DNA of 58,544 nt, counting the filler, from Stramenopiles sp. TOSAG23-6 (lineage: Eukaryota), in NCBI GenBank assembly GCA_900128565.1. It is 19 parts of 19 records of this genome, joined end to end, with 100 filler letters (N's around TTAATTAATTAA, not from the genome) between each part and the next. Parts side by side here need not be neighbours in the genome. Positions count along the whole stretch, not along the records: positions 13,480 to 14,499 come from LT639934.1; positions 14,600 to 21,850 come from LT636587.1; positions 21,951 to 29,197 come from LT636588.1; 16 more parts are not named here. One strand, written 5' to 3'. A program made the position numbers and the translations under genes. Shown here one piece after another: positions 6,849 to 39,214 of this stretch; position 1 is the first letter of the stretch; each line of letters begins with the position of its first letter. The notes under the pieces were generated by a model. It was not told the origin of the DNA and did not search any database. It saw only the letters and a list, made by a program, of their open reading frames with translations.

Positions 6849-7413
6849 ATGTCGCACTGCTGGACCAACAAGAAAAAGTCCTGGAGTTATACTACTTTCA
6901 TCAGAGTTTGTTAGGAATGGGGAGCGTTTTGCGCAATTATCGTTTTTGTTGTCTTCTTTTTCATCAACAAAATTGTCTTCTTTTTCATCCACAAAATTGT
7001 CTTCTTTTTCATCAACAAAATTGTCTTCTTTTTCATCAACAAAATCATCATCTAGAATTTCTATATCAATAATCTCTTTACTCACAATGTCATTGTCACT
7101 ATCTTCATCTTCTTTAGGTTGACCCCATTCAAACAAATCTTTGACAACACCTAAGCGAACACTTCCTTCGAAACCGGCACATAGAATGTATTTTGGAAAA
7201 ATATTTCAAAAAAAATCTAAAAAAAACTTGTTAGGTACAAAATTTCGTACGAAAAAAAAATTCGATTTTTTTTTTACCGGAAAAAATAATAAAACATACA
7301 TGGGTTGTTGTTGTGTATATAAAGTGATCTCTTCATCAACTTTTGATGTATTGTCACTCATAATTACATCTGGCACTTGTTCTCTGTATTTACCATTAGA
7401 AATCTTCTTCTTT

Positions 7414-11052: not shown

Positions 11053-11237
11053 GTATGTTTTAATTTTTTTTCAAATTCGAAGTTTTTTTCGTACGAAATT
11101 TTGTACCTAACGATTTTTTTTTGAAATATTTTTCCAANNNNNNNNNNNNNNNNNNNNNNNNNNNNNNNNNNNNNNNNNNNNTTAATTAATTAANNNNNNN
11201 NNNNNNNNNNNNNNNNNNNNNNNNNNNNNNNNNNNNN

Positions 11238-12258
11238 CAAAAGCATTTATTAAATATGGACGGAAACGTAATTGCCAAGTACGCCTAGCTCTTTTACCTC
11301 GCCATTTTCCAACTGATTTTTTGTCTAACCAATACTCACAGTCAGCTATCAAATGATCTACACCGTACGTATCATCTTCTCCTGGAATTGCGGAATTTCC
11401 GTCGGAATTTCTGTCGGAATTACCATCAGAATTACCATCAGAATTTCCATCGGAATTTCCATCAGAATTTCCATCGGAAGTATTAAATTGACGTTCGAAA
11501 CGATCCGGAGTCAGTCCTGTGAATGGTAATTTATAATTTCCATTTCCTTTGGAGAGTAAAACAAAAGTATTTGTCAAATCTTCTATAAAATCACTTAGTG
11601 TCTTTCAATTCATTATAAGAAAAAAAAGGATCTACTTTTTCATGTGCAGCAGCTTTTAAAATACTTATTGTAGCATGTACAATGCTTACTGTTGATACAT
11701 CAGTTTCACCCATATCATCTTTTATATTGCTATTTGAACTATTCGAAGAAAGAGAATTTTGCGAACTATTTGATGAATTATGATCTTTGTGATCTTCATC
11801 TGATATAATTGCATTGTTACTATGTAAAGCTCGGTTAGGTTTATGATTAGGGTTTGGCTTCCTATTGTTTGAATCACTTTCTTCTGAATCTTCTCCACTA
11901 GATTTACTTTTCCCTCTTTTAATTTCTCCTATACTAGACAAAGTATCATCATCAAAGAATACATTAGTAATATTATTCTGATTATTTTGATTTGAAATTG
12001 GATATCTTCGTAAACACTTCCAGTATGGCAGTACAATAGACTCAACTAAGGCTATATCACGAAGAGCATCATCTCTAATTTGACCATGTTCTATATCCAA
12101 TGGAGGAATAGGCTCTCCTAACATTGTCCTCACACATGTATCGTAAAAAAATATTTTTTTTTATTGTTTTTTGTTAGGTACAAAATTTCGTACGAAAACG
12201 TTTTTTTGGAAATTAATGATAAAAACATACACGCCTCAGCCCCTCTAGCAATGGATCT
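11238..12258 (-). CDS. Class II histone deacetylase (HDA1/HDAC6-like), C-terminal part of the catalytic domain plus extension
   Basis: Spliced RSIARGAEAC|VRTMLGEPIPPL...ALRDI..V.....PYWKCL matches the region after LEGGY in class II HDACs; exon structure near 11580-11640 uncertain. Confidence 0.65.
12136..12230 (-). mobile_element. GT-AT repeat intron (95 nt)
   Basis: GTATGTTTTT...TTCGTACGAAATTTTGTACCTAAC...TACGATACAT; restores EACVRTMLG. Confidence 0.85.
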
Positions 12259-13479: not shown

Positions 13480-14499
13480 CAAAAAGTTGAGATATCTAGT
13501 GATGATATGATAATAGAATCGGATACCGCAAATGTATGTGACTCTCTGATGAATTTCATTTTTTTATACAAAGTTTTGTACCTAACGTTTTTTTTTTAAC
13601 TTTTCACAACGCATGATTCTGGAAATAATCCAACCTGTGCTGAGATACTCCAGTCAGCCGTCCCCGAAATTATTAAAGCTGCGACACAGCACATATGTTT
13701 TCATTATGAATTTGAAATTTATTTTTTATTTTTTTTACTTGAAAATATTGTATCTAACGATTTTTTTTTCTGGCATAGTTTTTCATAATATATCTTAAAG
13801 GTGACACTGGAAAATATTTTAAAACAAAAGCTGCGATATATACTCTTTTGAGACAATTACTGCGAGCATCATCTGGGAAATCGCAATTGGGTTCAAAAAA
13901 CATTAATTTCTCTAAATCTGGTCTGAAACGAAGACCATCTTTGGAGAGACTGACATCTTCATCATCCATGTCTGATCTTCTCAATGTAGAAAGTCTAAAT
14001 GACCGAGGAGGACTTCATATCATTCGCGACCATGCTTCCGCAATTATCCCTGTTTTATTGAAAAGTTTGGATGCAAAGGCTCAAGGTCCAACTTCCGGAC
14101 CAATGCGTTTAGTAGCATTAGAATTTATGCGTGAGTTGCTATCAACGAATGATTCTAAATTTATATTTCCTTTCATTTCAAAAATTGTAGAAGTTGTTGC
14201 TTTATGTATCAAAGATGAATGGTATAGAATAGTTGCCGAGTCTCTTCGCGTAATTTCACGAATTGTTCAACTTATTCGACCCATTGATGCAGACACTGGC
14301 AAATTTCTAGAAATATCTTCTACATTTTCTCCGGATAAGTTCGCGATGCCACTTTTTATGGCTGTTAGGCCATGTTTGCGAAAGAGAGATCTGGATCAAG
14401 AAGTTAAGGAATGTGCTATCACTGCTTCTGCGTTAATTTTATCACGATTTGGAAATAATTTGGATGACCTTTTTGAAAAAACAGGGATAATTGCGGAAG
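13480..14499 (+). CDS. CAND1: Cullin-associated NEDD8-dissociated protein 1 (HEAT repeats), internal fragment
   Basis: VP.IIKA...LK....KTK...LL.QL, L.AL.F, D.WYRIVAESL.V, D.DQEVKECAI; requires introns 13534-13614 and 13693-13793. Confidence 0.85.
13534..13614 (+). mobile_element. GT-AT repeat intron (81 nt)
   Basis: AT|GTATGT...TTTTGTACCTAAC...TTTTCACAACGCAT|. Confidence 0.75.
13693..13793 (+). mobile_element. AT-AT variant of the repeat intron (101 nt)
   Basis: CAC|ATATGTTTT...TTGTATCTAAC...TTTCATAATATAT|CTT; restores the CAND1 frame (ATQH|LKGD). Confidence 0.75.
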
Positions 14500-14654
14500 N
14501 NNNNNNNNNNNNNNNNNNNNNNNNNNNNNNNNNNNNNNNNNNNTTAATTAATTAANNNNNNNNNNNNNNNNNNNNNNNNNNNNNNNNNNNNNNNNNNNNC
14601 GTACGTAATTTTGTACCTAACGATTTTTTTTTGAAATATTTTTCCAAAATACAT

Positions 14655-15459
14655 GTGGTTTGATATCAATCGGAGATTATTTAGTATCTGTTAACAAAAT
14701 TTCCGTTGAAAAAATGGAATTTTATAAAGTACTTCAAATGATTCGCAATGCTGAACGACCAATGACACTAAAATTTAGAAGATTTCACACAAATGAAACA
14801 AAAAATATAAATGTAACAAATGTAGAAAATATTCAAAATCATGATAAAATCTCAGCCACTTCAAAAGAAAACCCTAACAACACTAATAATTGTCCACCTG
14901 GAAACTTACAACCGATGTCGGGAAAAACATTGCAAACAAAAAATGGAAATTCCTATTATTCACCTTCTTGGCAATATTTATGGCCTTTTTGGGTTCTAGA
15001 CGTTACAAATGGAATTATATATGACTTACAATGTAGTTTGAAACAAGTTGTCCGTGTTGCTGCCGATCCCATCCAAATAATGTAGATTTTCAAAATTGAA
15101 TGTTTTACAACCATGTTTTTAATACGAAATTTTGTACCTAATGATTTTTTTTACCAAAATATATACATATTTTTTCACAATACATTCCTTTTTTACAACG
15201 ACGTAAAATACATCCGATGCATTCAATTACTGAAAATCCAGTTCAACTTATTTGCGAGTATTTAAAAACTCTAATTCGCGAAAAAACATCGATAAAGACA
15301 TTAAATTATATTTTTTCAAGCATGTACGCTTTCATCATTTCAATTTCATTTTTTTTTATTATGAAAATTCTGTACCTAACAAATTTCAAAACATTTCATA
15401 ACAAAATATTTTTCACATCTCATAAATATTGCTTTCAAGTCATGGCTTTCAGATTATAT
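14655..15459 (+). CDS. RMC1/C18orf8 (Mic1)-like protein fragment with a PDZ-like segment
   Basis: GLISIGD.L..VN...RPMTLKF (PDZ); YSPSW...P..VLD...G..Y.L...L...D...I.FLQRR resembles the RMC1 N-region; introns 15082-15185 and 15324-15423. Confidence 0.55.
15082..15185 (+). mobile_element. GT-AT repeat intron (104 nt)
   Basis: AT|GTAGATTTT...ACGAAATTTTGTACCTAAT...CACAATACAT|; restores QIIPFLQRR. Confidence 0.8.
15324..15423 (+). mobile_element. GT-AT repeat intron (100 nt)
   Basis: AT|GTACGC...TGTACCTAAC...TTTCACATCTCAT|; restores FSSINIAFK. Confidence 0.7.
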
Positions 15460-15555
15460 GTATGTTTTATTTTTTTTTAACAAAAAAATCGATTTTTTTT
15501 CGTACGAAATTTTGTACCTAACGAATTTTTTTTGAAATATTTTTCCAAAAAACAT
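15460..15555 (+). mobile_element. GT-AT repeat intron joining two different genes (probable chimeric junction)
   Basis: Near-consensus copy; upstream exon is RMC1-like in phase 2, downstream exon is RRP5 in phase 0. Confidence 0.75.
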
Positions 15556-18500
15556 GCAATACGTATGAGCACACTTTTTTCTTCAGGAACAGAAGTTAAT
15601 AATGCTTTGGTGCTTCATAATATTAGTGCTAAAAAGAATCACGGTGCATCTGTATTAATTACTTTAAAACCTTTATTTTTACAAAGTAGTGTACTGCCTA
15701 GTTCAATAGAAGATCTTTCGGTTGGTTCTATTGTACCTGCTTTTGTTTCTGGTGTGAAAACGTTTGGCGTTTTTATTCGATGTTTTGGTAACTTGACGGC
15801 TCTTGCTCCTAGATCCGAAGTTTCTGATTCGTTTGTGTCGGATCCAAATGAATTCTTTTCTGTTGGACAATCTGTCCGTGCAATTGTTACGGATATAACT
15901 GATGGAAGAGTTGTCGTGTCTTTGAAACCTTCCTTATGTTCCAGTGCTGAAGGTGATCACGATGCATTATTTTTATCGAGTATGTTGAAAGAAGAATCTC
16001 TGATGGGTCCTACTGTAGATGTAGATGATGATTCTATGAATATTGACAAACCAAATGCACAGGGGAAAACTCTGGAAATCGGTTCATGTGTTGAAGGTAA
16101 GATTATATTTGTGAAAGAGTATGGACTCATCATGGAATTAGAAGGAGGTCACATGGGATTAGTAATGAATCATCACGCAGCAGGAAAAGGTGTAGATGAC
16201 ATGAATATGAAACATAAATGTCGTGTCTTGCATGTATGTTTTATTTTTTTTTTTTTACAAAAAAATCGAATTTTTTTTCGTACGAAAGTTTGTACCTAAC
16301 GATTTTTTTTTGAAATATTTTTCCAAAATACATGTAAACTCTGAAAACGGCGTTGTTGATATTTCATTGAAGCCGGATCTTGTAAAGGCAGGTAAGAAGT
16401 CCAAGCGCAAATTACAAGCAACATCTGTAAAAAATATGACTATTGGTAGTATAATATCTGTCAAAATTGAACTGGTCAAAGAGGGTCGATATTTTATTAC
16501 TTCTATCCCTTCATGCAAAGGTGTCGTTGCTCTTGCGTCTATTGCCGGGTACAATGGACCTTCAAGCAAAATTTCTGCTTTAGTGGCTGGTGATGAATGT
16601 CAAATGCGCGTGGTTAAGCTACCAGATGCTAATTCCTCTCAGTTACTTTTGGCATCGGTGTCAGGCCGATCTCGCAAGACGTCTTCAAAAGAGTCCAACG
16701 TATTAACCGAAAAAAAATCCAATTCAATACTTCTTGAAGATGTGACAATTGGAATGACATTAAAAGGTAAAATTGTTTCTATCTTAGACTCTCAGATGAA
16801 TGTATCATTATTTGGCATTCAAGGCTATGCATGTGGTCGCGTTCACATCACTGAGGTAAGCGACGTGTCTGATAAAAATCGTGTGGTAGAAGCAATATCA
16901 TTGAAAGAAGGTGAAATGGAAGAACAAGAAATCGATCACCCTTTTGAAACTCATTGCAATGGTGAGATTATCAATGTCAAAGTCATTGGTATTCGCCATT
17001 CCCAGGAGAAAGGTAAACGAACATTTGAATTGTCTTTACGACCCTCTGTGATGAAACTTGAAGAAGGTAAAATTGGGACTCCGCGTTTTTCATGGGGTGA
17101 AAAGTCATTGCCGAAAAATTTACCATCAAAGAGCCAAGAAGTACAAGCTATTGTTACGAGTGTTGGCAGTGAACATATTAGTGTTGCTCTTTCTACAAGT
17201 GTTCATGGTGAAATTTCTATGATTGATGTCTCTCAGAATCAAAAGGTTGTTGAAGAACTCCGTCAACGGTTTACTCCAGGACAAATGCTTTCTTGTTTTG
17301 TTTTATCTGTTGATTCTAAAAAGCATCGCGTGGCTTTATCACTGCAAAAACATGATATAACTGCTGGTATTTCTGTCATGGGTCGTATCACCACCATTAA
17401 CCGCGGTGAAGGTGCTGCTCGTGGACAGTTAACTTCACTTTGTGTTCAATTACCAGGTAGACGTTATGGTCGTGTGTGTATCACTGAACTTACAGATGAG
17501 GATAAATGGGTGTCGATGCCATTGAAACAAAAAAAGTTTTCTGCTGGAGAGTTAGTGCGTTGTCGTGTTCTGAGTATATCCAAAAAACATGGTGGTTATC
17601 ATATTGATTTATCTTTACGCCCATCTATTTTTTCACTCTCTGTCAGCGATGTGACAAATCTTACACCAAATACTGCTAATATTGTTGTTGGACAACTTGT
17701 AAAAGGATATGTTCTTAATACAACTGTTAAAGGATGTTTTGTCAAAATGGCAGGTGGTGCAATTGGCCGCGTATTTGTCAGGAATCTTTCGGATTCATTC
17801 ATCAAGAATGTTAGTTCAGCTTTTCCTCCAGGAATGCTTGTAACTTGTCGTGTGATTTCTGCATCTATGGTTGCCGGAAAACGTCGTATTGAACTTTCAT
17901 TAAAAGAGTCTGTTGTGAATGGAAGTGGGGAAGAAGGTAAAATGTCAAAAAGTTTTACGGATTTCGAAAAAGGTGCAATTGTCACCGGTCGCGTTCGTCG
18001 TGTCACCAAATTTGGTGTTTTTGTTCGTTTGACTAACAGTGAGGTGGATGGTCTTTGTCACATGACTCAAGTTTCAGATGATAAAGTAGAAAATCCTGAA
18101 GCATTAGCTTCAATGTTTGATCAAGGTGATTTGGTTAAAGCAAAAATTTTGCGCATGGATATGGAGAAGAAGAAGTTATCTCTAGGTCTGAAAGCATCTT
18201 ATTTTGATGACGAAGACACTGAACTTATGGATGAAAGTAGTGACGATGAAGAGACCAACGCCATTTCTGAAAATTCTTCCGAAAATGAAGAAGATATGGA
18301 TATTGTTGAAAACGATATCGATGTTGACGACACTATTAAAACTACAACAAATCATACTAACAGTAGTGATGAAGATTCAGAAGATTCAGAAGATTCAGAA
18401 GAAGATAGTACTGATGAAGACAGCGAGGAAGAAGAAGGCACCAAAGAAAAAAATGCCCCTGTTGTCTCATTCGACACAGGGCTTGATTGGGGTGGTGATT

Positions 18501-19525
18501 TCGCCCTTTCTATGAGAGAGGATGAGTTTGGAAATAATTCTGACTCAGAATCCGAAGTTGATAGTGATGACGAAGACGTTCAAGATTCAAGTAAAAAAAC
18601 ATCTTCTTCTCGTCGCAAAAAAGCCGCGAAGAAGGCTCGCGAGTTAGAAGCTGTCGAAGCACGTGAAGAAGAATTGCTCAGAGGTGATACAATTCCTCAA
18701 CAATCTGAAGATTTTGAGCGACTGATTATTTCAACACCACATAGTTCATATGTATGGTTACAATATATGGCTTTCGAATTGGCTCGTAGTGAGATTGAAA
18801 AGGCACGTAACATTGCGGAGAGAGCATTGAAAACGATTTCTTTCAGAGAAGAACAGGAAAAAATGAATGTGTGGACTGCTTATATAAACCTTGAACACAA
18901 ATTCGGAACACCAGAATCTTTAGCTGTTATCTTTAAACGTGCCTCCGAACACTGTGATAGTTACGTGATACATGAGAAAATGTGTGATATGTACAGGAAA
19001 GCAGGTCAAGATAGCGAATTGGAGACTCTTTTGAAAATTGGCGTAAAAAAGTTCAAACAACGTGTATCAGTTTGGATTTCGTATGCCGCTTTTCTTCTGA
19101 AACAGGAGAAAGGAAAGCAAGCAAAAGGTTTGCTTCAACGTTCATTAAGAACACTCCCAAAACGATTACACATTACCACTATATCCAAATATGGCGCCAT
19201 AGAATTTAAATACGGAAGTGCAGAACGTGGAAGAACTGTGTTTGAAGGCCTAGTATCTCACTACCCAAAGAGAACGGATTTATGGAATGTTTACATTGAC
19301 AGAGAAATTAATTTCCTAAGCACAGTTATTACTGAGAGTAATAGAAATGGTCAATTGCCAAATGTAAGGAGACTGTTCGAGCGCGCTGCTCAACTAAAAA
19401 TTTCATCAAAAAAAATGAAATCACTATTTAAAAAGTGGTTTAATTTTGAAAACAAATCAGGTGACGAATTCGGATTGGAACGTGTGAAAGACTTAGCACG
19501 TGCTTATGTTGAGTCTCAACAATAA
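15556..19525 (+). CDS. RRP5: rRNA biogenesis protein RRP5 (S1 repeats + HAT/TPR C-terminus), 5' partial; intron 16234-16333
   Basis: Many S1 domains (FGVF..., LSLK/LSLRPS); DFERLI...P.SS..W..YMAF...EIEKAR..AERAL..I.FREE.EK.NVW.A..NLE. Confidence 0.95.
16234..16333 (+). mobile_element. GT-AT repeat intron (100 nt) in RRP5
   Basis: CAT|GTATGTTTT...TTTCGTACGAAAGTTTGTACCTAAC...CCAAAATACAT|GTA; removal fuses ORFs 15532 and 16223 into an intact S1 domain KCRVLH|VNSENGVVDISLK. Confidence 0.9.
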
Positions 19526-19634
19526 TCCAATGATATTGAATGAGTTTAAATTAAAAGTATGATTATACCATGAATAAAAAATAAAAAAGGGAGTTTAAAA
19601 AATATTGGAATGCACATTTATTAATTTTTAAATT

Positions 19635-20240
19635 CTATCTGTGGAAAGAAACATGAATTCCTGCAAAATACATATATACGACTACACCCAACACAACAAA
19701 TAGCCTAATAGCCATAGAAGCACATACACCACGAAGTACATCCGAAATTTCTGTGATCTCATACTCCTCATTCCTCAATGGTCTATATTGTTCACTCAAT
19801 TTTGCTGTTGATTCATCACGAGCTAGAGTAGCACCACCACTTACACCTTCTCTTATTAATCGAGTATTCCCACTTTGTACGCTTAATAATGCAGTAGATT
19901 CATCACCAGCCTCTGTGTTCCTTAACAATGCGGCACCCCCAATTACATCATCTACATCTCTTACAGATGATTTATCACGAGCCTCTGCAGCATCACCAAA
20001 TCCAGTCTCCATATCATCTTGTACATTCAATAATGTTGTTGATTTACCATGAGCCTCTGTTGATTCACCATGAGTCTCTGTGTTCCATAACAATGCATCA
20101 CCAACAGTTTCACCTATATTTCCAACAGATGGTTCAGGTTCATTAATATTATGCTCTGCAGTCCTTAAAGATGTACTTGCATTTACGATGTTTGCACCAT
20201 AGGAAACCAATATTATGATTGCGAGAAGAGTATTTCTCAT
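19635..20240 (-). CDS. Hypothetical type I membrane protein
   Basis: N-terminal signal peptide, internal GxALL.NTE..GESTALL repeats, C-terminal TM helix. Confidence 0.6.
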   Translation of the reverse strand: MRNTLLAIIILVSYGANIVNASTSLRTAEHNINEPEPSVGNIGETVGDALLWNTETHGESTEAHGKSTTLLNVQDDMETGFGDAAEARDKSSVRDVDDVIGGAALLRNTEAGDESTALLSVQSGNTRLIREGVSGGATLARDESTAKLSEQYRPLRNEEYEITEISDVLRGVCASMAIRLFVVLGVVVYMYFAGIHVSFHR

Positions 20241-20587
20241 TCTTTGAGTATATGCGTGGCAGTTACTCAGTTATTTTGACGATTCCGATCTAGAATGTAG
20301 TTTCCAGTAGTCTGAACCAAAGGTAATACTACTAGTAGAAGTACAGCAGAATCTATTACAATTCGCCTACGCAGAGCCTACGTAGAAGGGTACCTGTAGT
20401 ATACGTTTCCTCTTCGTTTTGTCAACTTCGAACTGAACTGACTTCATTTTCGTTTTTTGAAATGAAATTTCAATAGCTAATTAATTTGACTAAGTGTTTC
20501 TTTTCAATAAACTATATTTTTCAGTAGGTACGTTGTCATTAACAGAATTGTATTAAAGATAACCAATAATACACAAACAAGTTGCCA

Positions 20588-21797
20588 ATGCTGAAACAAC
20601 TTTCTCAACGAGCGGGATCTCTGCCATCCTCTGGAATTAGAAAGGTAATGGCGTTATCAGCAGAACTTGCAAGGCAAGGAAATGCTGTAATCCACCTTGA
20701 GGTTGGCCAACCTGGTATAGAAACGGCACAGCATATACAAGAAATAGTCAAGTCTGCTCTCCAAGACCCCAAAAATCTGGGTTACTGCTCAAATTTCGGT
20801 CTTGATTCTACTCGCAAGGCTGTGGCTGACCACTACAATCATAGATTTCTTTCCGAGAATATAGTTGTTCAACCTGAAAATGTTCTTATTACACCTGGAG
20901 CTGTTTTTGCAATAGCCAGTGGGTTTATGGCAACACTAGATGTAGGAGACGAAGTTTTAATTCCAGATCCTGGATGGGTAAACTATAGCATGACAGCAAA
21001 AATGTTGTCAGCCATTCCTGTCGCGTATAATTTGAAAAGTGAAGACTCTTGGCAAGTTCAGTTGTCAGAAATACAATCAAAAATCACGGATAAAACCAAA
21101 ATGATTGTGTTATGTTCTCCTGGTAATCCCACAGGTGTACGTGTTCACCATTCAATTCAAATTTCTACCTAATCAAAATATTTTGCATATAACAAAAAAA
21201 CAATAGAATTTGGTATTTTTCTCAAAAAACAGGCCGTCTTTTCTCAAGAAATTCTTGACGAAGTTCTTGGATTAGCACACAATCATGGTTTATATGTCAT
21301 TGGTGATGAAATATATAGTGCAATTAACTACATCAATACTGAAATGTCTGAAATTACATCAGACAATTATCATTCGCCAAGCCTCATGCAGTGTTCTAAT
21401 TACAACCCCAAAGCTCATTTCGTTGTTAGTGGTGTTTCCAAAGCCTGGGCTATGACAGGTTTTAGAGTGGGTACGCTTGTCGCGGATAGTGAAATAATAT
21501 CAAATATGGATAAATTAGTCGAATCTTTTGTTTCTTGCGGAGTTCCATTTAGCCAACACGCTGCGAGTGTTGCATTTGATCCATTGAATGTCTCTTCCAT
21601 AGAATTTGTGAATAGAGCTGTATGTTTCAATTTCGAAATTTTAATTTTTTTTATAGTCAATTTTGTACCTAACGAATTTTGTTTTTACTAAAAAAAAATA
21701 TTTTTTTACAATATATGTTCAAGAGTATTTGAGTAATCGAGATATTGTAGTTTCAATTTTAAATTCATACAATATTCAAACGATTATTCCAGAGGGT
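20588..21797 (+). CDS. PLP-dependent class I/II (aspartate-type) aminotransferase, 3' partial
   Basis: IHLEVGQP, GDEVLIPDPGW.NY, SPGNPTG|AVF, DEIY, SKAWAMTGFRVG (PLP lysine), IPEG; introns 21137-21232, 21620-21716 and 21798 to contig end. Confidence 0.92.
21137..21232 (+). other. GT-AG intron resembling the repeat family (96 nt)
   Basis: GTACGT...TTTCTACCTAAT...TATTTTTCTCAAAAAACAG; restores NPTG|AVFS. Confidence 0.85.
21620..21716 (+). mobile_element. GT-AT repeat intron (97 nt)
   Basis: GCT|GTATGTTT...TTTTGTACCTAAC...TACAATATAT|GTT; restores RA|VQEYLSNRDIV. Confidence 0.85.
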
Positions 21798-21950
21798 GTA
21801 TGTTTTATATGAATTTCTAATTTAATTTTTTTTTTCATACGAAATTTCGTNNNNNNNNNNNNNNNNNNNNNNNNNNNNNNNNNNNNNNNNNNNNTTAATT
21901 AATTAANNNNNNNNNNNNNNNNNNNNNNNNNNNNNNNNNNNNNNNNNNNN

Positions 21951-23281
21951 TTACTATTAAAATTATCATTGGATTTATCAACAGATTGATTTAAATGCGT
22001 TTCTGATAAAAGAGCAAGCTCTATCACATAACAAAGATATAGTGGAAATAAAAAAACAACTGCTGGTTGATGTCACGAAAACTCATCAAAAGGAATTGGA
22101 AGAAGTAAAAAAACAACTGCTGGTTGTCACGAAAACTCATCAAAAGGAATTGGAAGAAGTAAAAGTGAATCTAGAAAATGAATTGAATATAGTGAGTGAG
22201 GATAATATTTCTAGAATGAAGGCAAGACATAATGCTGAATTAGAAGAACTTGCAATTACTATTGTTTCTGAAAAAGAAAAGTATGTTGAATTGCAATCTA
22301 AGCATAAGCAACATGTTCGTATTCATTATTAATTTCAAATTTATCTTTTGTTTTGTACTACATTTTGAACCTAACGATTTCTTTTGGGGGCATATTTTTC
22401 ACTATACATTTAGAAACTCTCACCAATACACATAAGAGTATTATTGAAGCAGAGCAAAAGGAAACAAAGGTAAGTGTCAATGTTGATTTACNTGCAAAGA
22501 TAGCTGAACTTGAAGCGTCACTCCGTATTGTGAAGGAAACGTCTGATCAAAATGAAAGTAACATGAAGGAACAACTTGAGTTGTGTAAAGAAAGGCATGA
22601 AGAAGAAATACGTGCTTTGACTGACGAATTACAAAATGTTACTACGTTTAAAGATGAGCAACTTCAAAAACAAAAAGATGAATTTGAAAAACAACGTACT
22701 AGGAGTAGCAGTGCTTCTGATTATGGCTTTGATTTACGTGCAAAGATAGCTGAACTTGAAGCGTCACTCCGTATTGTGAAGGAAAGATAGCTGAACTTGA
22801 AGCGTCACTCCGTATTGTGAAGGAAACGTCTGATCAAAATGAAAGTAACATGAAGGAACAACTTGAGTTGTGTAAAGAAAGGCATGAAGAAGAAATACGT
22901 GCTTTGACTGNCGAATTACAAAATGTGGATAATTCTTCCAATAATACGGATGATTGTGTTGCTTTACATGCGACGATAGCTAAGCTTGAAGAAACAATAC
23001 GATTTTTGAAAGAAGAACATACGATAATATTGCAAGAGAGAGAGAAAACAGCTAATGAAGAGAAGATTTTGATAAAAATAGCAAATGAAGAGAATGAATT
23101 GATGAAGAATGAACTTGAAGAAATGCATCAAAAAGAAAAAACAGACAATCGGCAATCGTCGATCAACAATAATCGAATAGTACAAGACTTAAAAAATGAG
23201 CTAGAAGGTGCCAAAGAAACCATTGCAAATACAATGATTTACTTTAGAAAGACTTTTGATGAAAATTCACCAGACGAATAA
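21951..23281 (+). CDS. Coiled-coil protein, 3' fragment with internal repeats; intron 22315-22409
   Basis: Heptad-rich E/K/L sequence; repeated AKIAELEASLRIVKE blocks; frameshift near 22785. Confidence 0.55.
22315..22409 (+). mobile_element. GT-AT repeat intron (95 nt)
   Basis: CAT|GTTCGT...TTTTGAACCTAAC...TTCACTATACAT|TTA; joins ORFs 22042 and 22353 in frame. Confidence 0.75.
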
Positions 23282-23347
23282 TAAAAGAAATTCAATATTT
23301 TATTTTCAATATTTCTCCAACATACCAAAGGAACTAAGCAATAACTT

Positions 23348-26300
23348 TCACAATTTACGTCGAAGTCTTGTGGATCGTACATGAATTATGAAAAAATATT
23401 TCAAAAAAAAAACTAAAATTTGTTAGGTACAACATTTCGTACGAAAAAATAAATTAGATAAAAAATTGAAATGAAAACGTACACTTATTGCGTGTGCCAA
23501 TTCAAGTTCCGACTCCATAGACCAACGTTCTGAACGTCTTGCCAATTCTATTTTTGCTTCTCTAATACGTTTCAGTTTGATCATAAATATATCTTCTAAA
23601 ATTTCCAATTGTGACTACAGTGTGAAAAAAATATTATTTTTGAGGAAAAAAATCGTTAGGTACAAAATTTCGTACGAAAAAAAAATAATTTGAAATTCAT
23701 AATGAAAACGTGCCTGACTAAGATGTGAAAAATTAGCCGAATTTATGTCAATTATATCCTCTAACTGTAATGCTGTAGCAACTGCTTTTGGATGTGATTC
23801 TTCTAATTTATTTTGCAATGACAAAAGTCTCTCACTTGTTGTCGTTCTGGAGTCGTTACACTGAGGATGAACTTTTCCAAACTTTGGTCGAATTCGATAT
23901 CCCAAATGATTCTGGAATATATTGGACTTGATTCCCCCAAACCTAAGCTTTTCACTAAATGTACTCGTTATAGATCTTGGATTATTTCCATGCCATTTAG
24001 AGCTAGAATTACTCACATGCATTAAATTACTTGAACTTGTGGTAATGAGGGTATCTACTGATGGATTCTCCTTCCTTGATTTGTTATTTATTGATGTCGA
24101 AAGATATTGATTAAATAGCCTAGGTGTTGATGTATAAGACCCAGAACTACTATAGAGTTTACTATTGTTACCTTTTACATTATTAAATGTGGACTTCGCG
24201 CTCATTACNCGAAATTCATTTGGTAATGTNGAAGGTCGCAACTTGCCATTATTCGAAACTAAATCTCTTTGAGATGAAATTCCTAAATTGCGAATAAAAC
24301 GAAATCCTTTAGAATTGTCTGGCCCTTTTGAGTATCGAAGCTCACTTGAATATTTGTTTTTGTTGTTTCTGCTACGTAAATCTTGTTCAGTTTGGTTATN
24401 ATTCCAAAGTGACTTTGAACTTTGTTTCCTATTTGTCATTGAATGTTCAAATTGATGAGACTGTTGTGCTATAGATGACATACTTAAAGTAGAATTATCA
24501 AAAATATTTGATTTTTCAAATGCTGTAGACTCCAATTCATCATTATGNACTAAGTCAATATCTTGTACGTCATTTTGTTTATGGACTAAGTCAATATCTT
24601 GTACGTCATTTTGTTTACTATGATTCGGTTTACTATGAATGAGTTTACTATGATTTGGTTTACTATGATTGAGTTTACAATGATTCAGGTTACTATCATT
24701 TAGTTTACAATGATTCAGGTTACCATCATTTAGTTTACTATCATTTAGTTTACAATGATTCAGGTTACTATCATTTAGTTTACTATGATTCGGTTTACGT
24801 AGTGACACCAAATTAGGCTTTTGTTGCTGATTTGGANCTGCCTTGCATTCACGTNTCTGCTCTATTCGAAAGTTTTCCTGATTAAACTCTTCATTTTGTA
24901 CTACTTCAGAAAACTTCGTGACAGACCTGCGACGTTTTTCAATATTAGTCCGTTCGTCCATATTATCAATATTACCAAAATCTTTTTGCTTTTTCAATCC
25001 TCGTTTTACAACTTGCATCCAGCCAGTCATTTCATCTTTCCTATTACCTAATGTAACTGCATGCAAATTTTTCTTTGGTGTTGGTTTTGGCACAGGAACC
25101 GGATGACTTGCTGAAGAGAGATGCAATCTACCAAGAAAGGACATTGCATATAAATTACTGCTATCTATGTCCGCATCAGCACAATGCTCCATTTCACTAT
25201 CTTCATCTGAAATTATATCTGATTCTTGATCATTTTCACCCCTCTCATCAATAATGTTGTCTTTGATACCTTTTTGTTTTGTTTCTTCTTTATTTGCTAT
25301 GTTTTCTCCCGTATTTTTCTGTATTCCTTCTTTATTTTCTAGCTTTACACATTGATTGATATCCATCTGTTTATTTGCATTCTTACAAATATTTAAACTA
25401 TCTTTCTTACAAACATTTAAACTATCTTTAGTTTCATTCCGTACTCTTTCACTGTTCTCCTCTTTTGTACCATGAATTTCTTTAAAAACACTACTATTTA
25501 CGATGGGATTTCCATTGACATCTACATGAGTAAATGTGTGTTCGATATTATGAATAGCATTGGATATTGTATTGCTTGTTTTTTTTTCATTTTCAGATTT
25601 TTGCTGCTCTCCAAATTTGTGATAACATGTATTTTGGAAAAATATTTCAAAAAAAATCGTTAGGTACAAAATTTCGTACACTACACAAATCAAAATCAGA
25701 ACACACATCACATTTAAATCTAGATCCGCAAAGATCTGGTACAGCAGCTGTTACATCCATACTATAACAACCATCACATGTTACTCCAATATGAATATCA
25801 CTTCCAGAACTACTTTTACGATAGCAACTATTTGAAGTATTTGATACTTTTTTCTTAATTTTTTTCTTGCTACCTTTTTTATTTCCTTTTTTTCCATTTT
25901 TCTTTTTACTTTTTTTCTTTTTTTTATTGCCAGTAGAACTTTTATTTTCATCGCTTATACCAAAAATAGCCAACATTTTGCTCGCAGATTCCTTCTCCAG
26001 TTTTTGCCACTCTTTTTTAAGTAGATAAAAACATTTTTCACCAGGTACAAGATTTGTTTTATCATCGATTTCCATAATAGATCTGCCAAGTATATTGTTT
26101 TGTCTAGAATGTCTATTACTATGATTGAAATTCTTTTTTTTCGTTTTGTTTCCACAATCAAGATTTTGAAGCTGTAACTGATTTTGAATGTCTTCAAGAG
26201 CAGTTTGGCCAAAATTATTTCGAATTGTTATATCACAACCAAACGAAAGCAAGACTTTCAANCAAGCTGGCAATTGAAAAGATGCTGCTAAATGTGCAGC

Positions 26301-26999
26301 TGTAGCACCATCACGATCTTGCATATTACACAGCATTTCGGTTCTACTTTGACTTTGTTTTGTTTTGTTTTTTTCAGACCAANTTAGAAGAATTTCAACA
26401 ACTTTCGCTTTTTTTTTATCCTCTTCAGATGAAACGATAGAAATTTCATCAAATGTGTCATTTTCTTCATTCATTCCTAAATCACTCATCATTATAACAC
26501 ACATTACAGTTGTTACTCCATCGTGATTAGACATCATTGGGTCAGCTCCATGCTGTAAAAGACAATCTACAAAGTTCGCATCACCTTCAATGCAAGCCCA
26601 AGAGAGAGCAGTATCTCCATTTAAATTTCTAATACCAACAAGTTCCGGTGCTGATTTGCATAAGAGTTTTAATGTTTCAACATTACCACTTCGACAGACC
26701 ATATGAAGCGCAGTGCATTTTTCACCAGTCGTTTTCAAAAACAAATCAGCATCATGTTTGAGTAACAGTGATAAGCACTCAGTAAAGCCTTTTGCAGACG
26801 CTACCATTGCAGCAGTAAATCCATCATCATCTGCAGCATTTACATTTACTGGAACACGACCACAGTAAGTTGGCAATCCGTTCTCCAACATATCTCTTAA
26901 AGCTTCTACATTATTGTCTTCACAGAACTGAAATAGCTCTGGTTCCTCACACAAAATTTCACGGACGGTCTCTTGGCCCAGATTGTGAGGACTTCCCAT
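23348..26999 (-). CDS. Ankyrin-repeat + ZZ zinc-finger protein with a long disordered C-terminus (multi-exon)
   Basis: Ankyrin repeats (G.TA....A...G), ZZ finger H.GVTCDGC...RFKCDVCSDFDLC..CY; introns near 25631-25679, 23615-23713 and 23381-23482. Confidence 0.75.
23381..23482 (-). mobile_element. GT-AT repeat intron (102 nt)
   Basis: GTACGTTTT...TTTCGTACGAAATGTTGTACCTAAC...TTTCATAATTCAT. Confidence 0.7.
23615..23713 (-). mobile_element. GC-AG variant of the repeat intron (99 nt)
   Basis: CAG|GCACGTTTT...TTTCGTACGAAATTTTGTACCTAAC...TTTCACACTGTAG|TCA; in-frame join HLSQ|SQLEILE. Confidence 0.7.
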
Positions 27000-27338
27000 A
27001 ATAAAACTTTGATAGATGCACTTCTTATACTTTACTTCCTCTGTGTGAAGCCTTTCAACACTTTTGATGAAATGTAGACAATGACAAGTATAATGGCACA
27101 GCTATTTCAATGTTGAATATTTGATGAACACTAGTAGGGTTGTTTTCTAAAATGAAGACTCTTATCACTGACTACATTTACATTACCCGGTAACGTATTT
27201 TGAAATTCATTTTCGAAAACAACATCATTATTATCATTTCAAATGATTTTCAATCCATGAATTCTTTCGTTCATTTTCAAAAAACAACAAATGAATAACA
27301 CACACACACACAACAATGATCACACTATTCATAAATAA

Positions 27339-28382
27339 ATGATTGCTTTATCAAAGAAAAGCTTAAGCGAAGCATTGCTCGCTTTCCCCTCATGCTGCAG
27401 TGATACTAAACTAAAAGTTGTGAACAAAAATATCCAGATCATTGACTGCTTACCTCGTGGTTTTGATTTCCTTACGAGCGTATCTCATATTTATCTCAGT
27501 TGTAATAATATTCAGTCCTTAGTTGGTATTGAGCAGTTTCCTTCAATAGAAACTTTATCAATTGCGGATAATTTTATAGAAGATTTTCGGGAGCTACGTG
27601 TTCTACAACGTGCTCCGTTGCTTCGTTCACTAAACCTTGAAGGTAATCCTATAACTAGATTCGTAAACTATCGACCTCGAGTATTGCAGTTATTACCAGG
27701 ATTGAAAAGTCTCGATAAAGTTATTGTAGACGAAAGAGAAATAACGCGATCACTTAAAATTATGCAATCGGAAGCTATTCATATGAGAATACTATTTGAA
27801 AACGAGTGTACAATATATGTTCTGAAACGCCAACTCATTATGAAGTCTTTACACCTAAACTTGAAGAAACGTGTAAGAATGAATAGAAGAAGGAATACTG
27901 CCTTGGATAATAACTGTACTATCATGGACATCACACTATTCTTGAGATTGTGTGAATATTCGGAATTTGCACGTTCCATCCCTTTTTTATATGATACTAT
28001 TTGTTCGCAAATATTTAGGTGTGTTACACAACTTTGGTCTTCAATGAAGAAAAGTAAAGTAAAAAAAAATAGAAAAAATAATCCACTTTGGTCTAGCGCG
28101 TTTCATGAATTGAGGGAAATTCAAGAAAGTGCAATTTGTGATATGAAAAGATCCATTGAGAAAGAACTATTAAAATATTCAAATGAAAGCGAAAATTGTA
28201 CTGAGAAACAGATGCAAAAAAAGGATTTCTCTGTTAAAACGAAACCAATGAATTTACATGATGGTATTAATAATAAGCGTAGGGTATCTACATTCAAAAA
28301 AATAAATACGTATGATACAAAAATGATTTATACTAACAATAAAACAAATATATACTGCAAATTTTCTGACGGGAAAAGGTGA
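27339..28382 (+). CDS. SDS22/U2A'-type leucine-rich repeat protein
   Basis: LxLSCNNIQSL, LSIADNFI, LNLEGNPI....YR..V...LP.L..LD LRR cap. Confidence 0.8.
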   Translation: MIALSKKSLSEALLAFPSCCSDTKLKVVNKNIQIIDCLPRGFDFLTSVSHIYLSCNNIQSLVGIEQFPSIETLSIADNFIEDFRELRVLQRAPLLRSLNLEGNPITRFVNYRPRVLQLLPGLKSLDKVIVDEREITRSLKIMQSEAIHMRILFENECTIYVLKRQLIMKSLHLNLKKRVRMNRRRNTALDNNCTIMDITLFLRLCEYSEFARSIPFLYDTICSQIFRCVTQLWSSMKKSKVKKNRKNNPLWSSAFHELREIQESAICDMKRSIEKELLKYSNESENCTEKQMQKKDFSVKTKPMNLHDGINNKRRVSTFKKINTYDTKMIYTNNKTNIYCKFSDGKR

Positions 28383-28636
28383 ACACCAACAACATAGCTC
28401 TATATGCTTGGAAACGCAAGCATTTCCAAATGCACCAAACCAACATGAATTTCCAAATTGTATCCTTCAACCTGGTGATACCTATGACCACCACACGTTG
28501 TATAGATTTAGTTATGCAACATAATTTAATTGGGGTTAGGGTTGTAAGCACTACATAATAAATAGATGTAGTTATCTAGCAACTTGATCTAATTTTATTG
28601 ATATCGAATTTTTAACATGAAATATCGCAAAATATG

Positions 28637-29143
28637 TTACATATTTAATCGTCTCAATATTCGTGCATGAACTTGCTCAATTTCGAAAGCAACGTCATTT
28701 GAATGTTTGGGAGATTTTATAATAAATCCATTATTTTCTTTTGTATACTTTGGAGATTGTTTTACTTTCTTCAAATACTTCCAAATGAGCCACGCATTTT
28801 GCACTTTTGTTAAATTTAGATTCCGGAATTTTGTTTTGAGGATACAATTCAAATTTTTGAAACATTTCAAAGTTTTTTGTCTTTCAACAAATAATTTCCA
28901 CAAAATCAATGCTGATCGTATTTTACACTTTCTGAAGATATTAAATATTTTACATTTTTCTGAAAAAACAAACAATTTCCAGTGAGTCATCGCTATTCGT
29001 ACACTACGGACATTGAACCAATTAATCAGATACTTCCGCTGTAAGTTTTCAGTTTCTTGATTTTCTTCAGCTATGTTTTTAAGTTTTTCCTTCCAAAATA
29101 TTTCATTTGACTTTATATTGTGTTGAACTATTCTACCAGTCCT
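28637..29143 (-). CDS. Hypothetical protein, last exon (Sfi1-like W-repeats)
   Basis: Open frame after repeat-intron acceptor 29144; repeated A...WK motifs. Confidence 0.45.
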   Translation of the reverse strand, partial: RTGRIVQHNIKSNEIFWKEKLKNIAEENQETENLQRKYLINWFNVRSVRIAMTHWKLFVFSEKCKIFNIFRKCKIRSALILWKLFVERQKTLKCFKNLNCILKTKFRNLNLTKVQNAWLIWKYLKKVKQSPKYTKENNGFIIKSPKHSNDVAFEIEQVHARILRRLNM

Positions 29144-29297
29144 ATGTATTTTGGAAAAATATTTCAAAAAAAAAAAACTTAAATTTGTTAGGTACAANNN
29201 NNNNNNNNNNNNNNNNNNNNNNNNNNNNNNNNNNNNNNNNNTTAATTAATTAANNNNNNNNNNNNNNNNNNNNNNNNNNNNNNNNNNNNNNNNNNNN

Positions 29298-30866
29298 ATC
29301 AACATTATCAACATTATCAACATTATCAACATTATCAACATTTTTATCATCATCAACATTATCAACATTATCAACATTATCAACATTATCAACATAATTG
29401 TCGTTTCTATTATTTCTATTGAGACTATTAGGGTTAGGGATACTATTTAGTGACGTCATTTCTTCATAATTTAATGGTCCAACTTTATCAAATAATTTGA
29501 CAAACGATTGATGGCATAATTTCTGTTGCTTTTTTACTGTCTTTATATCTTCTTTTTCTTGTATAATTTGTCTAGGGTTAGGGTTTTCTGTAGGATTTAT
29601 TGATTTTTTTTGAATATTTTTTGAATATTTTTCTTCCAAATGTTTCAACTTTGTAGTAGAAGGATTCAAGTTTGTTTCATCTATTTCTTCAAAATCATTT
29701 GCTGTATTTGTATATGAAGATGACTGGGTATCATCCGACACCAAAATTTTACTAAAAAAATTGGATATTAATTTATGAAATGTAAAAAATATATTTTTTT
29801 TTGAAATAATTTTTTTTGTTAGGTACAAAATTTCGTACGAAACCAAAAAAAAATTAGGGTTAGGGTTTAAAAAAAAAACGTACATGCTTCATTGTCTTTC
29901 TTCTCCATCGAGTTGTGGCCCATAAAACTGATAATTCTTTAAGATCATCCTCAGTAGATAAATCTATTTGTTCCACTACTGCACTTTGTACTAAAAATTT
30001 ATCTGGTTTTCGGTGAAAAAATGTCGAATCTTCAGAAAGTTGTGTAATCAATTTTCGTACTTGACTTTTTCGTATTATTAACTTTTTCGTGAAGAAATAT
30101 TTATATATATATTTTGTATACAGTTAGATATAATATTTTGTTTTTTAGTCGAAAGTGTAAAAAACAAATCTTTTTTGTTTAGGTACAAGATTTTTCTAGA
30201 AGAAAATAACAACAAAAAATAGTACATTTGAATTTTTGTACTAAAAAAAAAAATCTTTTTTGTTTTTTTGTTTTTTTGTTTAGGTACAAAATTCACTACG
30301 AAAAAAAATTAGAAAAAAATTAGAAAAAAAAAAAAAAAACGTACTTGAATTTCAATCCATTTTTTTGGACCTACAATTCCCATCGTTGGATGAACTTGGT
30401 ATCTCTTTGGCATTGTTGTTTTAATTTTGAATGCTAATGATTTACTGGGTAGTTTATTTTCGAGTAAAAGTCTACCGATGGCCATTTGATCTTTTTCTAA
30501 AGCAAAATCAATTTCAAAATTTGGAGATATTCGGAGTGAATTAGGGTTAGGGTTATTTGGCTTTCTAATTGATTCAAACGTTTTTGTTCTTTGTCTAAGT
30601 CTTTTTTTAGTTAGAGGGTTATTATATTTTGTTTCTTTATCACTTTGTATTTCAATGTCTTTAATATTGTTGGTTGTTTTGTTTGTGTAATCTTGTTTAG
30701 TTTCGTTTGCAGTTACATTTGTTCTTATATCTTTTACTACTTGAGGGTTAATCGTATTATTTCGTTCATTTTGAGTGCTAATTGTATTATATGGTTCATT
30801 ACACTCTGACTCGTCAGGGACAGCACTTTTTGAAGTGCTTACAGTAGACTGTATGCTTTGAGACAT
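29298..30866 (-). CDS. MSP (VAP-like) domain protein, 3' partial
   Basis: L.N.....LAFKIKTT.PKRY.V.P..G.V and DKFLVQS; introns 30082-30344 (GT-AG) and 29775-29883 (GT-AT). Confidence 0.8.
29775..29883 (-). mobile_element. GT-AT repeat intron (109 nt) containing a CCCTAACCCTAA insertion
   Basis: CAT|GTACGTTTT...TTTCGTACGAAATTTTGTACCTAAC...TTTACATTTCAT|AAA; in-frame join. Confidence 0.75.
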
Positions 30867-31900
30867 GATGTACAGTATTATATTTATGTATATAACAAGG
30901 TATAGACAATATTCAAAAGAATAAATAACTTAAATTCAAAGATTTAACGATAACAAGACAACACCAACCGTTAAAACAATAAATTCACTTTCATTGTTGT
31001 TGTTTTGTGTATTGCTTTATGGTTACCGTACCATTGAATTACCCGTCCATGTATATTTGTAGATATATACAATATCTAGTATATGAACTATAGTGTTACC
31101 TCTATAGTAATCAAGGAGAAGTGAGTTGTTAGTTTCTTTTGCTACCTAGTAGTAGTTCGTACACAAAGGACCTAAAAAGCAATGTTAACATTTTTTTTCA
31201 AAACGGTTTCAAAAAAAAAAATTTTAACGGCCATCCAAAAATTCTCAAAAAAAAATCCTATTTTCAGATTTCGTCGCTCAAACTTAAGTACAAATTTCCG
31301 TACTAAAATTTATTCTTCAAATAGAAAATTGTACTCTACTTCCGTGTCCTCAAAGTACAGTATAAAAGTTTGAATTTGTCGTGTGAGATTCCATACCATT
31401 TTTTCGTACTTGGAAAAAAAATTGTTGTATATATTGTGGAATTCCGTATTTCGTATGAAAAAAACATAAATTCGAAATTGAAAAAAAATAACCCTAACCC
31501 TAATACTAAATTTAAATTGAAAAAAATAGTACTAATAAAAAGATACAAAAAAAATGCGAAATTTGTTTTATTTTTTATTTATATAAAACACCATAAAAAT
31601 GGTCTAAAATAAAAGCAGACATGCCTACTAAGATAAGATAGAAAAAAAATGCAAAATTATTTTTTACAATTTTTGGGAGTTTTTGGTATATTCGATTAAG
31701 CATTTTATGTATGCAGGGTATTTTTGAGCATATATTGTGAAAAAATATTTTTTGTTTTTTTTTTTTTTCTTAAGTACAAAATTGTATACAAAAAAAAAAT
31801 ATTTGATAAAAAAAAAAAAAAANATTTTTTTTTTNTNANGTACAAAATTGTATACGAAAAAAAAATATTTGATAAAAAAAATGAACTTTCAAAAACGTAC

Positions 31901-32858: not shown

Positions 32859-32890
<32 letters not shown>

Positions 32891-38987: not shown

Positions 38988-39214
38988 GATAATAGTTTTA
39001 TAAGGTTGTTATAGTGTGTTTGTAGTCATTCAACAGTCCGAATGACCGACTTCGAATTCATTTTTTTTTTCATTCATCGGCGTTTTTACGTTTTTTTCAT
39101 CATGATCCGTTACTTTCTCAATTATTAAAAATTCGCACATGCCATGAAGGCAGCGGAAATTGTATCAAGATTTCGAGATTGTGAAGGAAAAGTTTCAACA
39201 AACAATCTACAGTG

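Follow-up and report, generated by a model that had tools for sequence, protein, structure and literature searches.

A family of near-identical introns, mostly with apparent GT..AT ends and probably of transposon origin, in Stramenopiles sp. TOSAG23-6

An intron family that appears to end mostly in AT

The stretch of DNA analyzed here (58,544 nucleotides [nt], filler included; referred to below as the window) comes from genome assembly GCA_900128565.1 of Stramenopiles sp. TOSAG23-6 and contains approximately 45 copies of a single intron-like element of ~100 nt, counting copies that are truncated by contig ends and copies located by their donor motif. Among the 26 complete copies that we curated, 22 begin with GT and end with AT, two are GT..AG (21137-21232 and 32982-32712), one is GC..AG (23713-23615), and one is AT..AT (13693-13793). 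This agrees with the original prediction, which had described four terminal dinucleotide pairs with GT-AT as the norm and had named the introns at 13693-13793, 21137-21232, and 23615-23713, all three of which were recovered with the same ends. We think it probable that the family is an introner of the miniature inverted-repeat transposable element (MITE) type, spliced by the major spliceosome at a YAT acceptor. The broader proposal, that the major spliceosome of this organism routinely finishes at YAU and that GU-AU introns have become dominant (~85 to 90% of the sampled introns and thousands genome-wide), created and maintained by the AT duplication of the MITE, seems to us somewhat better than an even bet.

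The window consists of 19 unlinked contigs, which are joined end to end by N44-TTAATTAATTAA-N44 linkers (for example, at 1027-1126 and 14500-14599) and ordered by falling size, with 13 contigs of ~1.02 kb (~1026 to 1020 nt) and then 6 of ~7.2 kb (7251 to 7226 nt). Neighboring genes on different contigs are therefore not linked, and the range over which the family was originally described, 13693-23713, covers three such contigs (13480-14499, 14600-21850, and 21951-29197). The GC content is ~32%, and the standard genetic code reads through long open reading frames (ORFs). DNA of the window was found in public marine runs, namely, seawater metagenomes, metatranscriptomes, and three small DNA runs of one coded organism.

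Near-identical introns lie in unrelated genes (Rrp5, CAND1, PI-PLC, and an aminotransferase gene), and four of the copies reach 90% identity or more with the reference copy, which lies in Rrp5. That the three named introns share internal motifs, as originally claimed, and that a large family has these motifs too are borne out by an alignment of 22 copies (alignment A1) and by motif counts: TTGTACCTAAC, at up to one mismatch, occurs 30 times versus 0.86 expected, with 0 of 100 shuffles reaching 30, and GTAYGTTT occurs 29 times versus 5.83 expected, both counts taking in the two copies of a duplicated contig (7873-8894 and 8995-10016, identical at 1,022 of 1,022 bases). The consensus of alignment A1 reads ..AT/GTATGTTTT..TCATTATGAATTT..TTTTTTTTCGTACGAAATTTTGTACCTAACGATTTTTTTTT..AAATATTTTTCACAATACAT/G.., where slashes mark the intron borders. 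The seven copies cut on their 3' side start with GT, and the five cut on their 5' side end in AT.

The 5' ends of the 26 curated introns comprise 24 GT, 1 GC, and 1 AT, the majority reading GTAYGT, in line with the GTRNGT-like extended donor (GT or GC) of U2-type introns. In 24 of the 26 introns, a CTAAN motif is present 15 nt or more from the 3' end, and a T-tract is visible in all 22 segments, which gives the YTNAY branch and pyrimidine tract of the U2 type. The 3' ends depart from the U2-type YAG acceptor, with 23 being AT (21 YAT and 2 AAT) and 3 being AG; at 21 of the 23 AT ends, the base at position -3 is C or T, mirroring the YAG rule. By our reading of the segments, the 3' end falls 9 to 11 nt past the T-tract in most copies. 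The branch A lies 29 to 60 nt from the 3' end across copies, and the roughly constant distance of 30 to 50 nt put forward originally did not hold. A GTAYGT donor and a CTAAC branch are classic strong U2-type signals, and taking donor, CTAAY branch, T-tract, and branch distance together, the major spliceosome would most likely be the machinery that fits these introns.

It had also been claimed that the extended branch motif is better conserved than the terminal bases. We found the reverse: in alignment A1, GT begins 20 of 22 copies and AT closes 20 of 22, versus 15 of 22 with an exact ACCTAAC (one further copy has an N). Conservation of the extended motif TTTTGTACCTAAC reflects the youth of the copies; in older ones, only CTAAY is retained, in the forms TATCTAAC, TTTCTAAC, TACCTAAT, and ACTAAG.

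Exon borders and transposon-like ends

Whether GT..AT marks the exon borders was judged by reading frame, domain continuity, equivalent cuts, and comparison with canonical alternatives, and all four lines say that it probably does. Both ends are set by alignment columns alone in 21 copies, 17 of which are testable for frame; the other four are the copy at 12230 (exon cut), the copy at 23482 (last exon of 10 codons), and both CAND1 introns, with a 26-codon exon between them. In all 17 testable copies, the longest upstream and downstream ORFs join in frame, the chance being 1 in 3 for each.

Protein domains continue across several junctions. In the intron within the PI-PLC Y domain (50076-50178, plus strand, GT..AT, 103 nt, branch TATCTAAC), exon 1 ends with ..SSNFNPQ and one base, and exon 2 gives two bases and then MWTSGAQLVALN, so that the spliced product reads NPQ-R-MWTSGAQLVALN; on PF00387, exon 1 extends to position ~72 to 74 and exon 2 starts from 74, with zero residues lost. 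There is no AG ahead of the conserved QLVALN, and the sole equivalent cut is TA..TG. For the GT..AT intron of the 3-hydroxyacyl-CoA dehydrogenase (3HCDH) gene (43658-43753, plus strand, 96 nt), the second residue of exon 2 corresponds to PF00725 position 11, and nine preceding exon 1 residues, counted from GYVGNR, require no indel, where we take the C-terminal domain to start probably at the first G of GYVGNR. At the truncated copy 25631-25679, positions 1 to 32 of the 45-position ZZ profile stop at the end of exon 1 (only the upstream half is matched), and the join gives DLCS/TCYHKFGE, preserving the C-x-x-C spacing. The GT..AG intron of the aminotransferase gene (21137-21232, plus strand, 96 nt, branch TACCTAAT) begins with GTACGT and ends with ACAG; it joins NPTG/AVFSQE, and PF00155 positions 161 and 162 are continuous over the junction.

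Because of direct repeats at the borders, the cut position is ambiguous in young copies. Among the equivalent cuts listed for all 26 introns, GT..AT is possible in 22, TG..CA in 14, TA..TG in 12, and AT..AC in 9. For the introns starting at 33602 and 32102, GT..AT is the sole solution among the equivalent cuts.

The AT..AT intron of CAND1 (13693-13793, plus strand, 101 nt, branch TATCTAAC) begins with ATATGT and ends with TATAT. Alternative gene models were scored at the junction segment against a profile built from 42 full-length CAND1 homologues. The model with AT13693..AT13793 scored 21.5 bits, with the profile residues kqLk aligned to TQHLK, versus 16.5 bits for GT13697..AG13800, 13.0 bits for AT13693..AG13778, and 3.6 bits when the 26-codon exon was skipped. 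The AT..AT borders are thus favored by ~5 bits, which is moderate support for the gene model and not proof. The A at 13693 rests on the assembled sequence, and a G there would make the intron an ordinary GT..AT copy. A PDB search at this junction did not cover it, since homology to human CAND1 begins only at residue 77 of exon C. The first CAND1 intron (13534-13614, plus strand, GT..AT, 81 nt, branch TACCTAAC) joins ..SDTAN/DSGNNPT.

The ends of the element have the appearance of transposon termini. In alignment A1, similarity among copies begins 2 nt ahead of the GT and stops 1 nt past the AT. Of the 26 copies, 13 have an AT directly upstream of the intron, versus 11% expected (p = 1.3e-6), as do all 4 of the youngest copies (at least 90% identical to the reference copy), and 14 have a G directly downstream (p = 1.2e-5). 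CATGTAT is common to the left end of the reference copy, CATGTATGTTTT, and its reverse-complemented right end, CATGTATTTTGG. Judged by these features, the element is a putative small, MITE-like DNA transposon with terminal inverted repeats of GTAT(G)TTTT and a 2-bp AT target duplication, usually in a C-AT-G context. For an invariant dinucleotide of 2 bp, a duplicated AT and a strict C-AT-G insertion site are indistinguishable, a caveat also raised in PMC9860276. Since the intron equals the element plus one copy of the AT, splicing would restore the original mRNA, and a MITE-like introner origin explains both the uniform internal motifs and the source of the 3' AT.

All copies that adjoin a recognizable ORF are in sense orientation. 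In an independent DNA metagenome, the depth over the element, summed over all matching contigs, is ~35,000 versus 7.5 to 8.9 for unique exons, which suggests thousands of element copies. A scan of viral contigs with a 22-nt core of the element gave 0 matches, and a scan of the metagenome with Rrp5 returned only relatives at 33 to 45% identity, with no intron-free alleles among them.

We propose the following sequence of events. A MITE-type introner would insert into a gene, and the major (U2-type) spliceosome would excise it from the pre-mRNA, with the element supplying a GTAYGT donor from its left inverted repeat, a CTAAC branch within TTTTGTACCTAAC, and the T-tract. The acceptor would be the AT of the downstream target duplication, ~10 nt beyond the T-tract, and removal of the element with one AT copy would restore the reading frame exactly. 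The second splicing step would accept YAT, keeping the A at -2 and taking U for G at -1, and YAG would still be used where present. The rare AT..AT and GC..AG copies would be mutated members of the same family. The last base of an intron contacts the first, and the A at -2 contacts the branch A; this spliceosome may thus tolerate a U at -1 facing the G (or A) at +1, and its early reader of the AG may be altered or missing.

Points against, alternative explanations, and related systems

Several observations weigh against spliced introns with GT..AT borders. For 6 of the 26 introns, the reading frame guided the choice of one end (15082, 25631, 31730/31900, 32102, 32712, and also 43658), which introduces a curation bias; at 43658, the choice between two GTs was confirmed by alignment only afterwards. 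The whole sample amounts to 58 kb of short contigs. In 20 of 21 AT-ending introns, three to seven other ATs come after the branch and before the chosen one (none in 13534), and since these upstream ATs are passed over, AT alone cannot specify the site; a rule by which the first YAT after the T-tract is taken fails, by our reading, in roughly 8 of 20 copies. In-frame, stop-free GT/GC..AG pairs are found within ~20 to 40 nt for 19 of the 23 non-AG introns, and 7 of these 19 alternatives alter the protein length by no more than one residue (13693, 22315, 42241, 2571, 12230, 32102, and 32296). In the first CAND1 intron, the profile cannot separate GT13534..AT (21.5 bits) from GT13534..AG13644 (20.5 bits). 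Lastly, no RNA contig from three metatranscriptome runs bridges any intron of 14600-21850. A donor is reached by a single RNA contig (run X8; 21397-21673, plus strand, 277 nt, 1 mismatch, depth 5), which runs from exon into intron and breaks off with the last base of the TTGTACCTAAC motif, and the ratio of element depth to exon depth is similar in RNA and DNA libraries.

The canonical pairs just mentioned could mean that the nearby GT/GC..AG sites are the real borders, such as the second GT of GTATGT together with an AG slightly inside the supposed exon, and that GT..AT is an artifact of cutting at repeat edges. We regard this as unlikely. The canonical alternatives occur at the frequency expected by chance, they are not conserved, the site differs from copy to copy, and most of them delete 2 to 17 residues, whereas the AT occupies a single alignment column and keeps the frame in all 17 testable copies. 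No such alternative exists for 4 of the 23 introns (15082, 15460, 53744, and 31900). Where domains can be compared, the only alternative in PI-PLC Y loses 8 conserved residues, those in 3HCDH and S1 lose 2 to 13 residues, and the GT..AG model at CAND1 13693 costs 5 bits.

It is also conceivable, and in our view improbable, that no splicing takes place at these ends, the elements being gene-inactivating MITEs or being removed at the DNA level like the internal eliminated sequences of ciliates. The RNA data agree with this, in that spliced RNA contigs are absent, the one RNA contig that extends to a donor passes from exon into intron, and the element is as deep relative to exons in RNA libraries as in DNA libraries. 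The end of the X8 contig could reflect assembly breakage at a repeat, pre-mRNA, DNA carry-over, or a lariat-related stop; the joints listed for 14600-21850 are cross-joins between copies of the repeat. The RNA library data as a whole fit DNA carry-over or pre-mRNA and, equally, a lack of splicing. A search of a protein collection with exon 2 of the aminotransferase gene returned only relatives at 51 to 54% identity, none from this organism. The no-splicing reading is at odds with the sense orientation of every copy adjoining a recognizable ORF, with the donor, branch, and T-tract kept in old, diverged copies, and with flanking ORFs that are long and open and whose frame is restored by exact removal in 17 of 17 testable cases. 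In addition, an independent DNA metagenome has introns in the same places (at 16308 and 15529, DNA contigs of run X4 continue out of the intron into the exon, and 21137-21232 is spanned), and the genes are read with the standard genetic code.

If the cuts were placed 2 nt leftward, the introns would be AT..AC, composed of the target duplication AT and the element. The AT..AC pair is used by both spliceosomes, and where the AT duplication is intact, both cuts give the same mRNA; the shifted cut would work for 9 of 26 introns, the young copies at 15460, 16234, and 7299 among them. It is impossible in 17 of 26, it creates an in-frame TGA in PI-PLC Y, and copies with a decayed upstream AT retain the downstream AT, which makes this reading very unlikely.

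The least probable alternative, to which we give hardly any weight, is a highly diverged minor (U12-type) spliceosome, which the original prediction had entertained and for which the window offered nothing in favor. Among U12-type introns, GT-AT and AT-AT are known as rare boundary pairs, and positions +1 to +4 (RTAY) and the ..CCTAAC branch loosely resemble the U12 consensus. Physarum polycephalum has noncanonical U12-type introns that include GT-AT (17%) and AT-AT (8%) pairs (10.1101/2020.10.12.336362). In the window, however, RTATCC is absent from all 26 curated 5' ends, in line with the original remark that the U12 donor is missing; RTATCCTT occurs 8 times (4.1 +/- 2.1 expected), never at a curated intron 5' end, and TTCCTTRAY occurs 5 times (3.6 expected), never in a curated intron. 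A T-tract and a branch 29 to 60 nt from the 3' end are unlike what is described for U12-type introns (10.1101/2020.10.12.336362 and PMC11282704). An Rfam search of the window found no small nuclear RNA at the gathering score or at an E value of up to 1, the only matches being a tRNA fragment and one chance match at microRNA level.

Removal by the major spliceosome at YAT leaves the question of how that AT would be chosen. Of the original suggestion of a relaxed major spliceosome that defines its acceptor by branch distance, the first half stands on the U2-type signals; the second does not, given the two-fold variation in distance, the skipped ATs, and the conserved AT itself. A fixed branch-to-acceptor ruler was thus rejected, and the 9- to 11-nt spacing from the T-tract is as well explained by shared descent as by a ruler. 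Pairing of the intron ends was rejected as a mechanism as well, with 76 of 104 pairs observed versus a permuted mean of 75.2 (2,057 of 5,000 permutations reached the observed value) and no covariation, as was a hairpin, since ten copies folded no better than shuffled sequences (z, -1.37 to +1.35).

The element probably belongs to a known kind, the introners, the new point being the AT as a co-opted acceptor. Some described introners bring their own 5' site and borrow the 3' site from the target-site duplication (PMC9860276). The present family resembles them in having many near-identical short introns spread over unrelated genes of a marine protist, bounded by terminal inverted repeats and with a target duplication; the element would give the donor and the duplicated target the acceptor, leaving mRNA length unchanged. 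It differs in having AT and not AG as the acceptor and a duplication of only 2 bp, and its splicing is predicted from DNA. Transposon-derived introns with noncanonical borders are reported for Fritillaria, Amoebophrya, Polarella, euglenids, and Physarum (PMC11282704). The MITE-derived introns of Fritillaria borealis likewise have terminal inverted repeats, a target-site duplication, and a 3' end taken from flanking or duplicated sequence (PMC11282704); AT or AC 3' ends are common there, and a U2 spliceosome with altered 3' recognition has been proposed (PMC11282704 and PMC13326754), divergent U2AF paralogues reading the noncanonical 3' ends (PMC13326754). In Fritillaria, the 5' end is also noncanonical (AG-AC and AG-AT), whereas here a textbook GTAYGT and a strong CTAAC are retained and only the last base departs. 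The U12-type introns of Physarum, whose noncanonical ends include GT-AT, AT-AT, AT-AG, and AT-AA (10.1101/2020.10.12.336362), share with the present family the GT-AT and AT-AT pairs, massive recent gain, and conserved internal motifs; in contrast to them, our copies have a T-tract and lack the U12 donor and a branch close to the 3' end. The nonconventional introns of euglenids and hemistasiid diplonemids are similar in their non-GT-AG borders, likely MITE origin, and inverted-repeat ends (PMC12621601 and PMC11282704) but have no conserved donor and depend on stably paired ends, whereas in the window, the donor is conserved and there is no excess folding or covariation.

Among the papers listed for GT-AT/GU-AU introns, supplements aside, there was no report of a lineage with major-type introns mostly ending in AT. 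In the literature cited here, AG and AC are treated as the accepted 3' ends. One survey discarded families with unfamiliar sites unless transcripts supported them, and surveys relying on annotated AG/AC acceptors would not detect an AT-ending family (PMC12130899).

If the proposal is correct, standard gene finders and AG/AC-filtered introner surveys would miss or mismodel almost all genes of such an organism. Few signals of eukaryotic gene expression are as constant as the AG that closes an intron, and to our knowledge, the large-scale departures from it alter both ends (Fritillaria, euglenids, and Amoebophrya) or involve the minor spliceosome. Here, a nearly invariant last base would have been respecified across a lineage with donor and branch still textbook, and such a lineage would isolate the 3' recognition step from donor and branch. 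Three questions could then be tested directly: what factor or RNA contact recognizes the last base, whether G(+1)-U(-1) can replace G-G, and whether a transposon target duplication can drive the spliceosome to a new specificity. The interest would be high if cDNA confirmed the junctions.

Individual copies and other features of the window

The remaining curated copies on the plus strand are GT..AT introns. The reference copy (16234-16333, 100 nt) lies in an S1 repeat of Rrp5 and joins CRVLH/VNSENGVVDISLKP in frame (251 and 1,063 codons on the two sides); owing to a CATGTA repeat, it has seven equivalent cuts. On the same contig are 15082-15185 (104 nt, donor GTAGAT, chosen with the help of the frame; 153 and 97 codons), the young copy 15460-15555 (96 nt; 105 and 247 codons), which may lie in the 5' untranslated region of the Rrp5 gene, and a second intron of the aminotransferase gene, 21620-21716 (97 nt; 149 and 31 codons). 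The copy at 22315-22409 (95 nt, donor GTTCGT; 118 and 126 codons) has an alternative of equal length, GT22319..AG22413. For 42241-42330 (90 nt; 97 and 64 codons), an AG 3 nt downstream is likewise in frame, and 42463-42566 (104 nt, donor GTCTGT) is a young copy. The copy at 53744-53840 (97 nt) joins ORFs of 808 and 430 codons. Another intron of the PI-PLC gene, 49543-49654 (112 nt; 486 and 160 codons), has repeated ACTAA motifs in place of TACCTAAC: one TACTAAG is followed by four tandem ACTAAAAA(A) units, giving several branch-like sites in a row.

On the minus strand, the GC..AG intron 23615-23713 (99 nt, branch TACCTAAC) begins with GCACGT, ends with TGTAG, and joins ..SHLSQ/SQLEILED (679 and 63 codons). 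The GT..AT copy 2467-2571 (105 nt) lies in an EamA-like gene, and the EamA profile match (positions 2 to 44) stops exactly at the exon end. Further GT..AT copies are 7186-7299 (114 nt, young; 157 and 145 codons), 12136-12230 (95 nt), whose upstream exon is truncated by the contig end, 23381-23482 (102 nt), whose downstream ORF of 10 codons is possibly the last exon, and 33472-33602 (131 nt; 424 and 165 codons), for which no other cut gives the same mRNA. Three neighbors with the same ends are 31730-31900 (171 nt), which has two branch-like motifs and one frame-aided end, 31955-32102 (148 nt), whose GTGTTT donor was picked by reading frame, and 32197-32296 (100 nt), which ends with GAAT; for the last, a CAG 5 nt upstream is out of frame, and GT32292..AG32193 is an alternative of equal length. 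The 5'-truncated copy 25631-25679 (49 nt) may still work as an intron on paper, with an internal GTACGA, which lies within the palindrome TTTCGTACGAAA, as the donor and an AAT acceptor, chosen by reading frame, 4 nt upstream of the usual ACAT of the family.

The GT..AT copy 29775-29883 (minus strand, 109 nt; 80 and 159 codons) carries a telomere-like insert of CCCTAA repeats (AAACCCTAACCCTAA) at 29854-29868. Similar short CCCTAA runs occur near 29440 and 11841 (both on the minus strand), and other samples have an AACCCT insertion polymorphism after 14869.

The GT..AG intron 32712-32982 (minus strand, 271 nt) consists of two tandem element remnants, its acceptor having been assigned by reading frame (175 and 96 codons). 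Together with 30082-30344 (minus strand, 263 nt as modeled), it resembles two or three element remnants in tandem; both contain several TACCTAA branch motifs, each with an in-frame AG acceptor, and the end of the 30082-30344 intron is ambiguous. The donor of the latter, 30344 in an MSP gene, is one of those kept outside the 26, since either AG at 30082 or several ATs are in frame. Also outside are the donor at 15324, for which neither an AT nor an AG end suits both neighbors, the donors at 32547 and 491, and three copies for which no ORF could be assigned (36085, 36157, and 36956). Among the copies cut by contig ends, the 3' part at 14600-14654 (plus strand) ends with ACAT and is followed by an exon that begins at PDZ profile position 42, and the 5' part at 11053-11137 (plus strand, at a contig edge) starts with GTATGT.

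The contig at 36642-43884 has the highest GC content of the long contigs (37.6%). It carries an intron-free gene for a beta-keto acid cleavage enzyme (40617-41654, minus strand; Pfam E = 2e-93) and an RNase H/RVT_3 ORF (38484-39008, minus strand). Because neighboring genes on it hold four copies of the intron family, we assign this contig to the same organism. An ORF of 711 codons (23618-25750, minus strand) contains a long run of near-repeats, KLNDSNLNHC/KPNHSKL, with a weak pentapeptide-repeat match (E = 6e-6) under the Pfam cutoff. A tRNA gene truncated by the end of the window lies at 58491-58544 (minus strand; Rfam, 40.3 bits, model positions 19 to 71).

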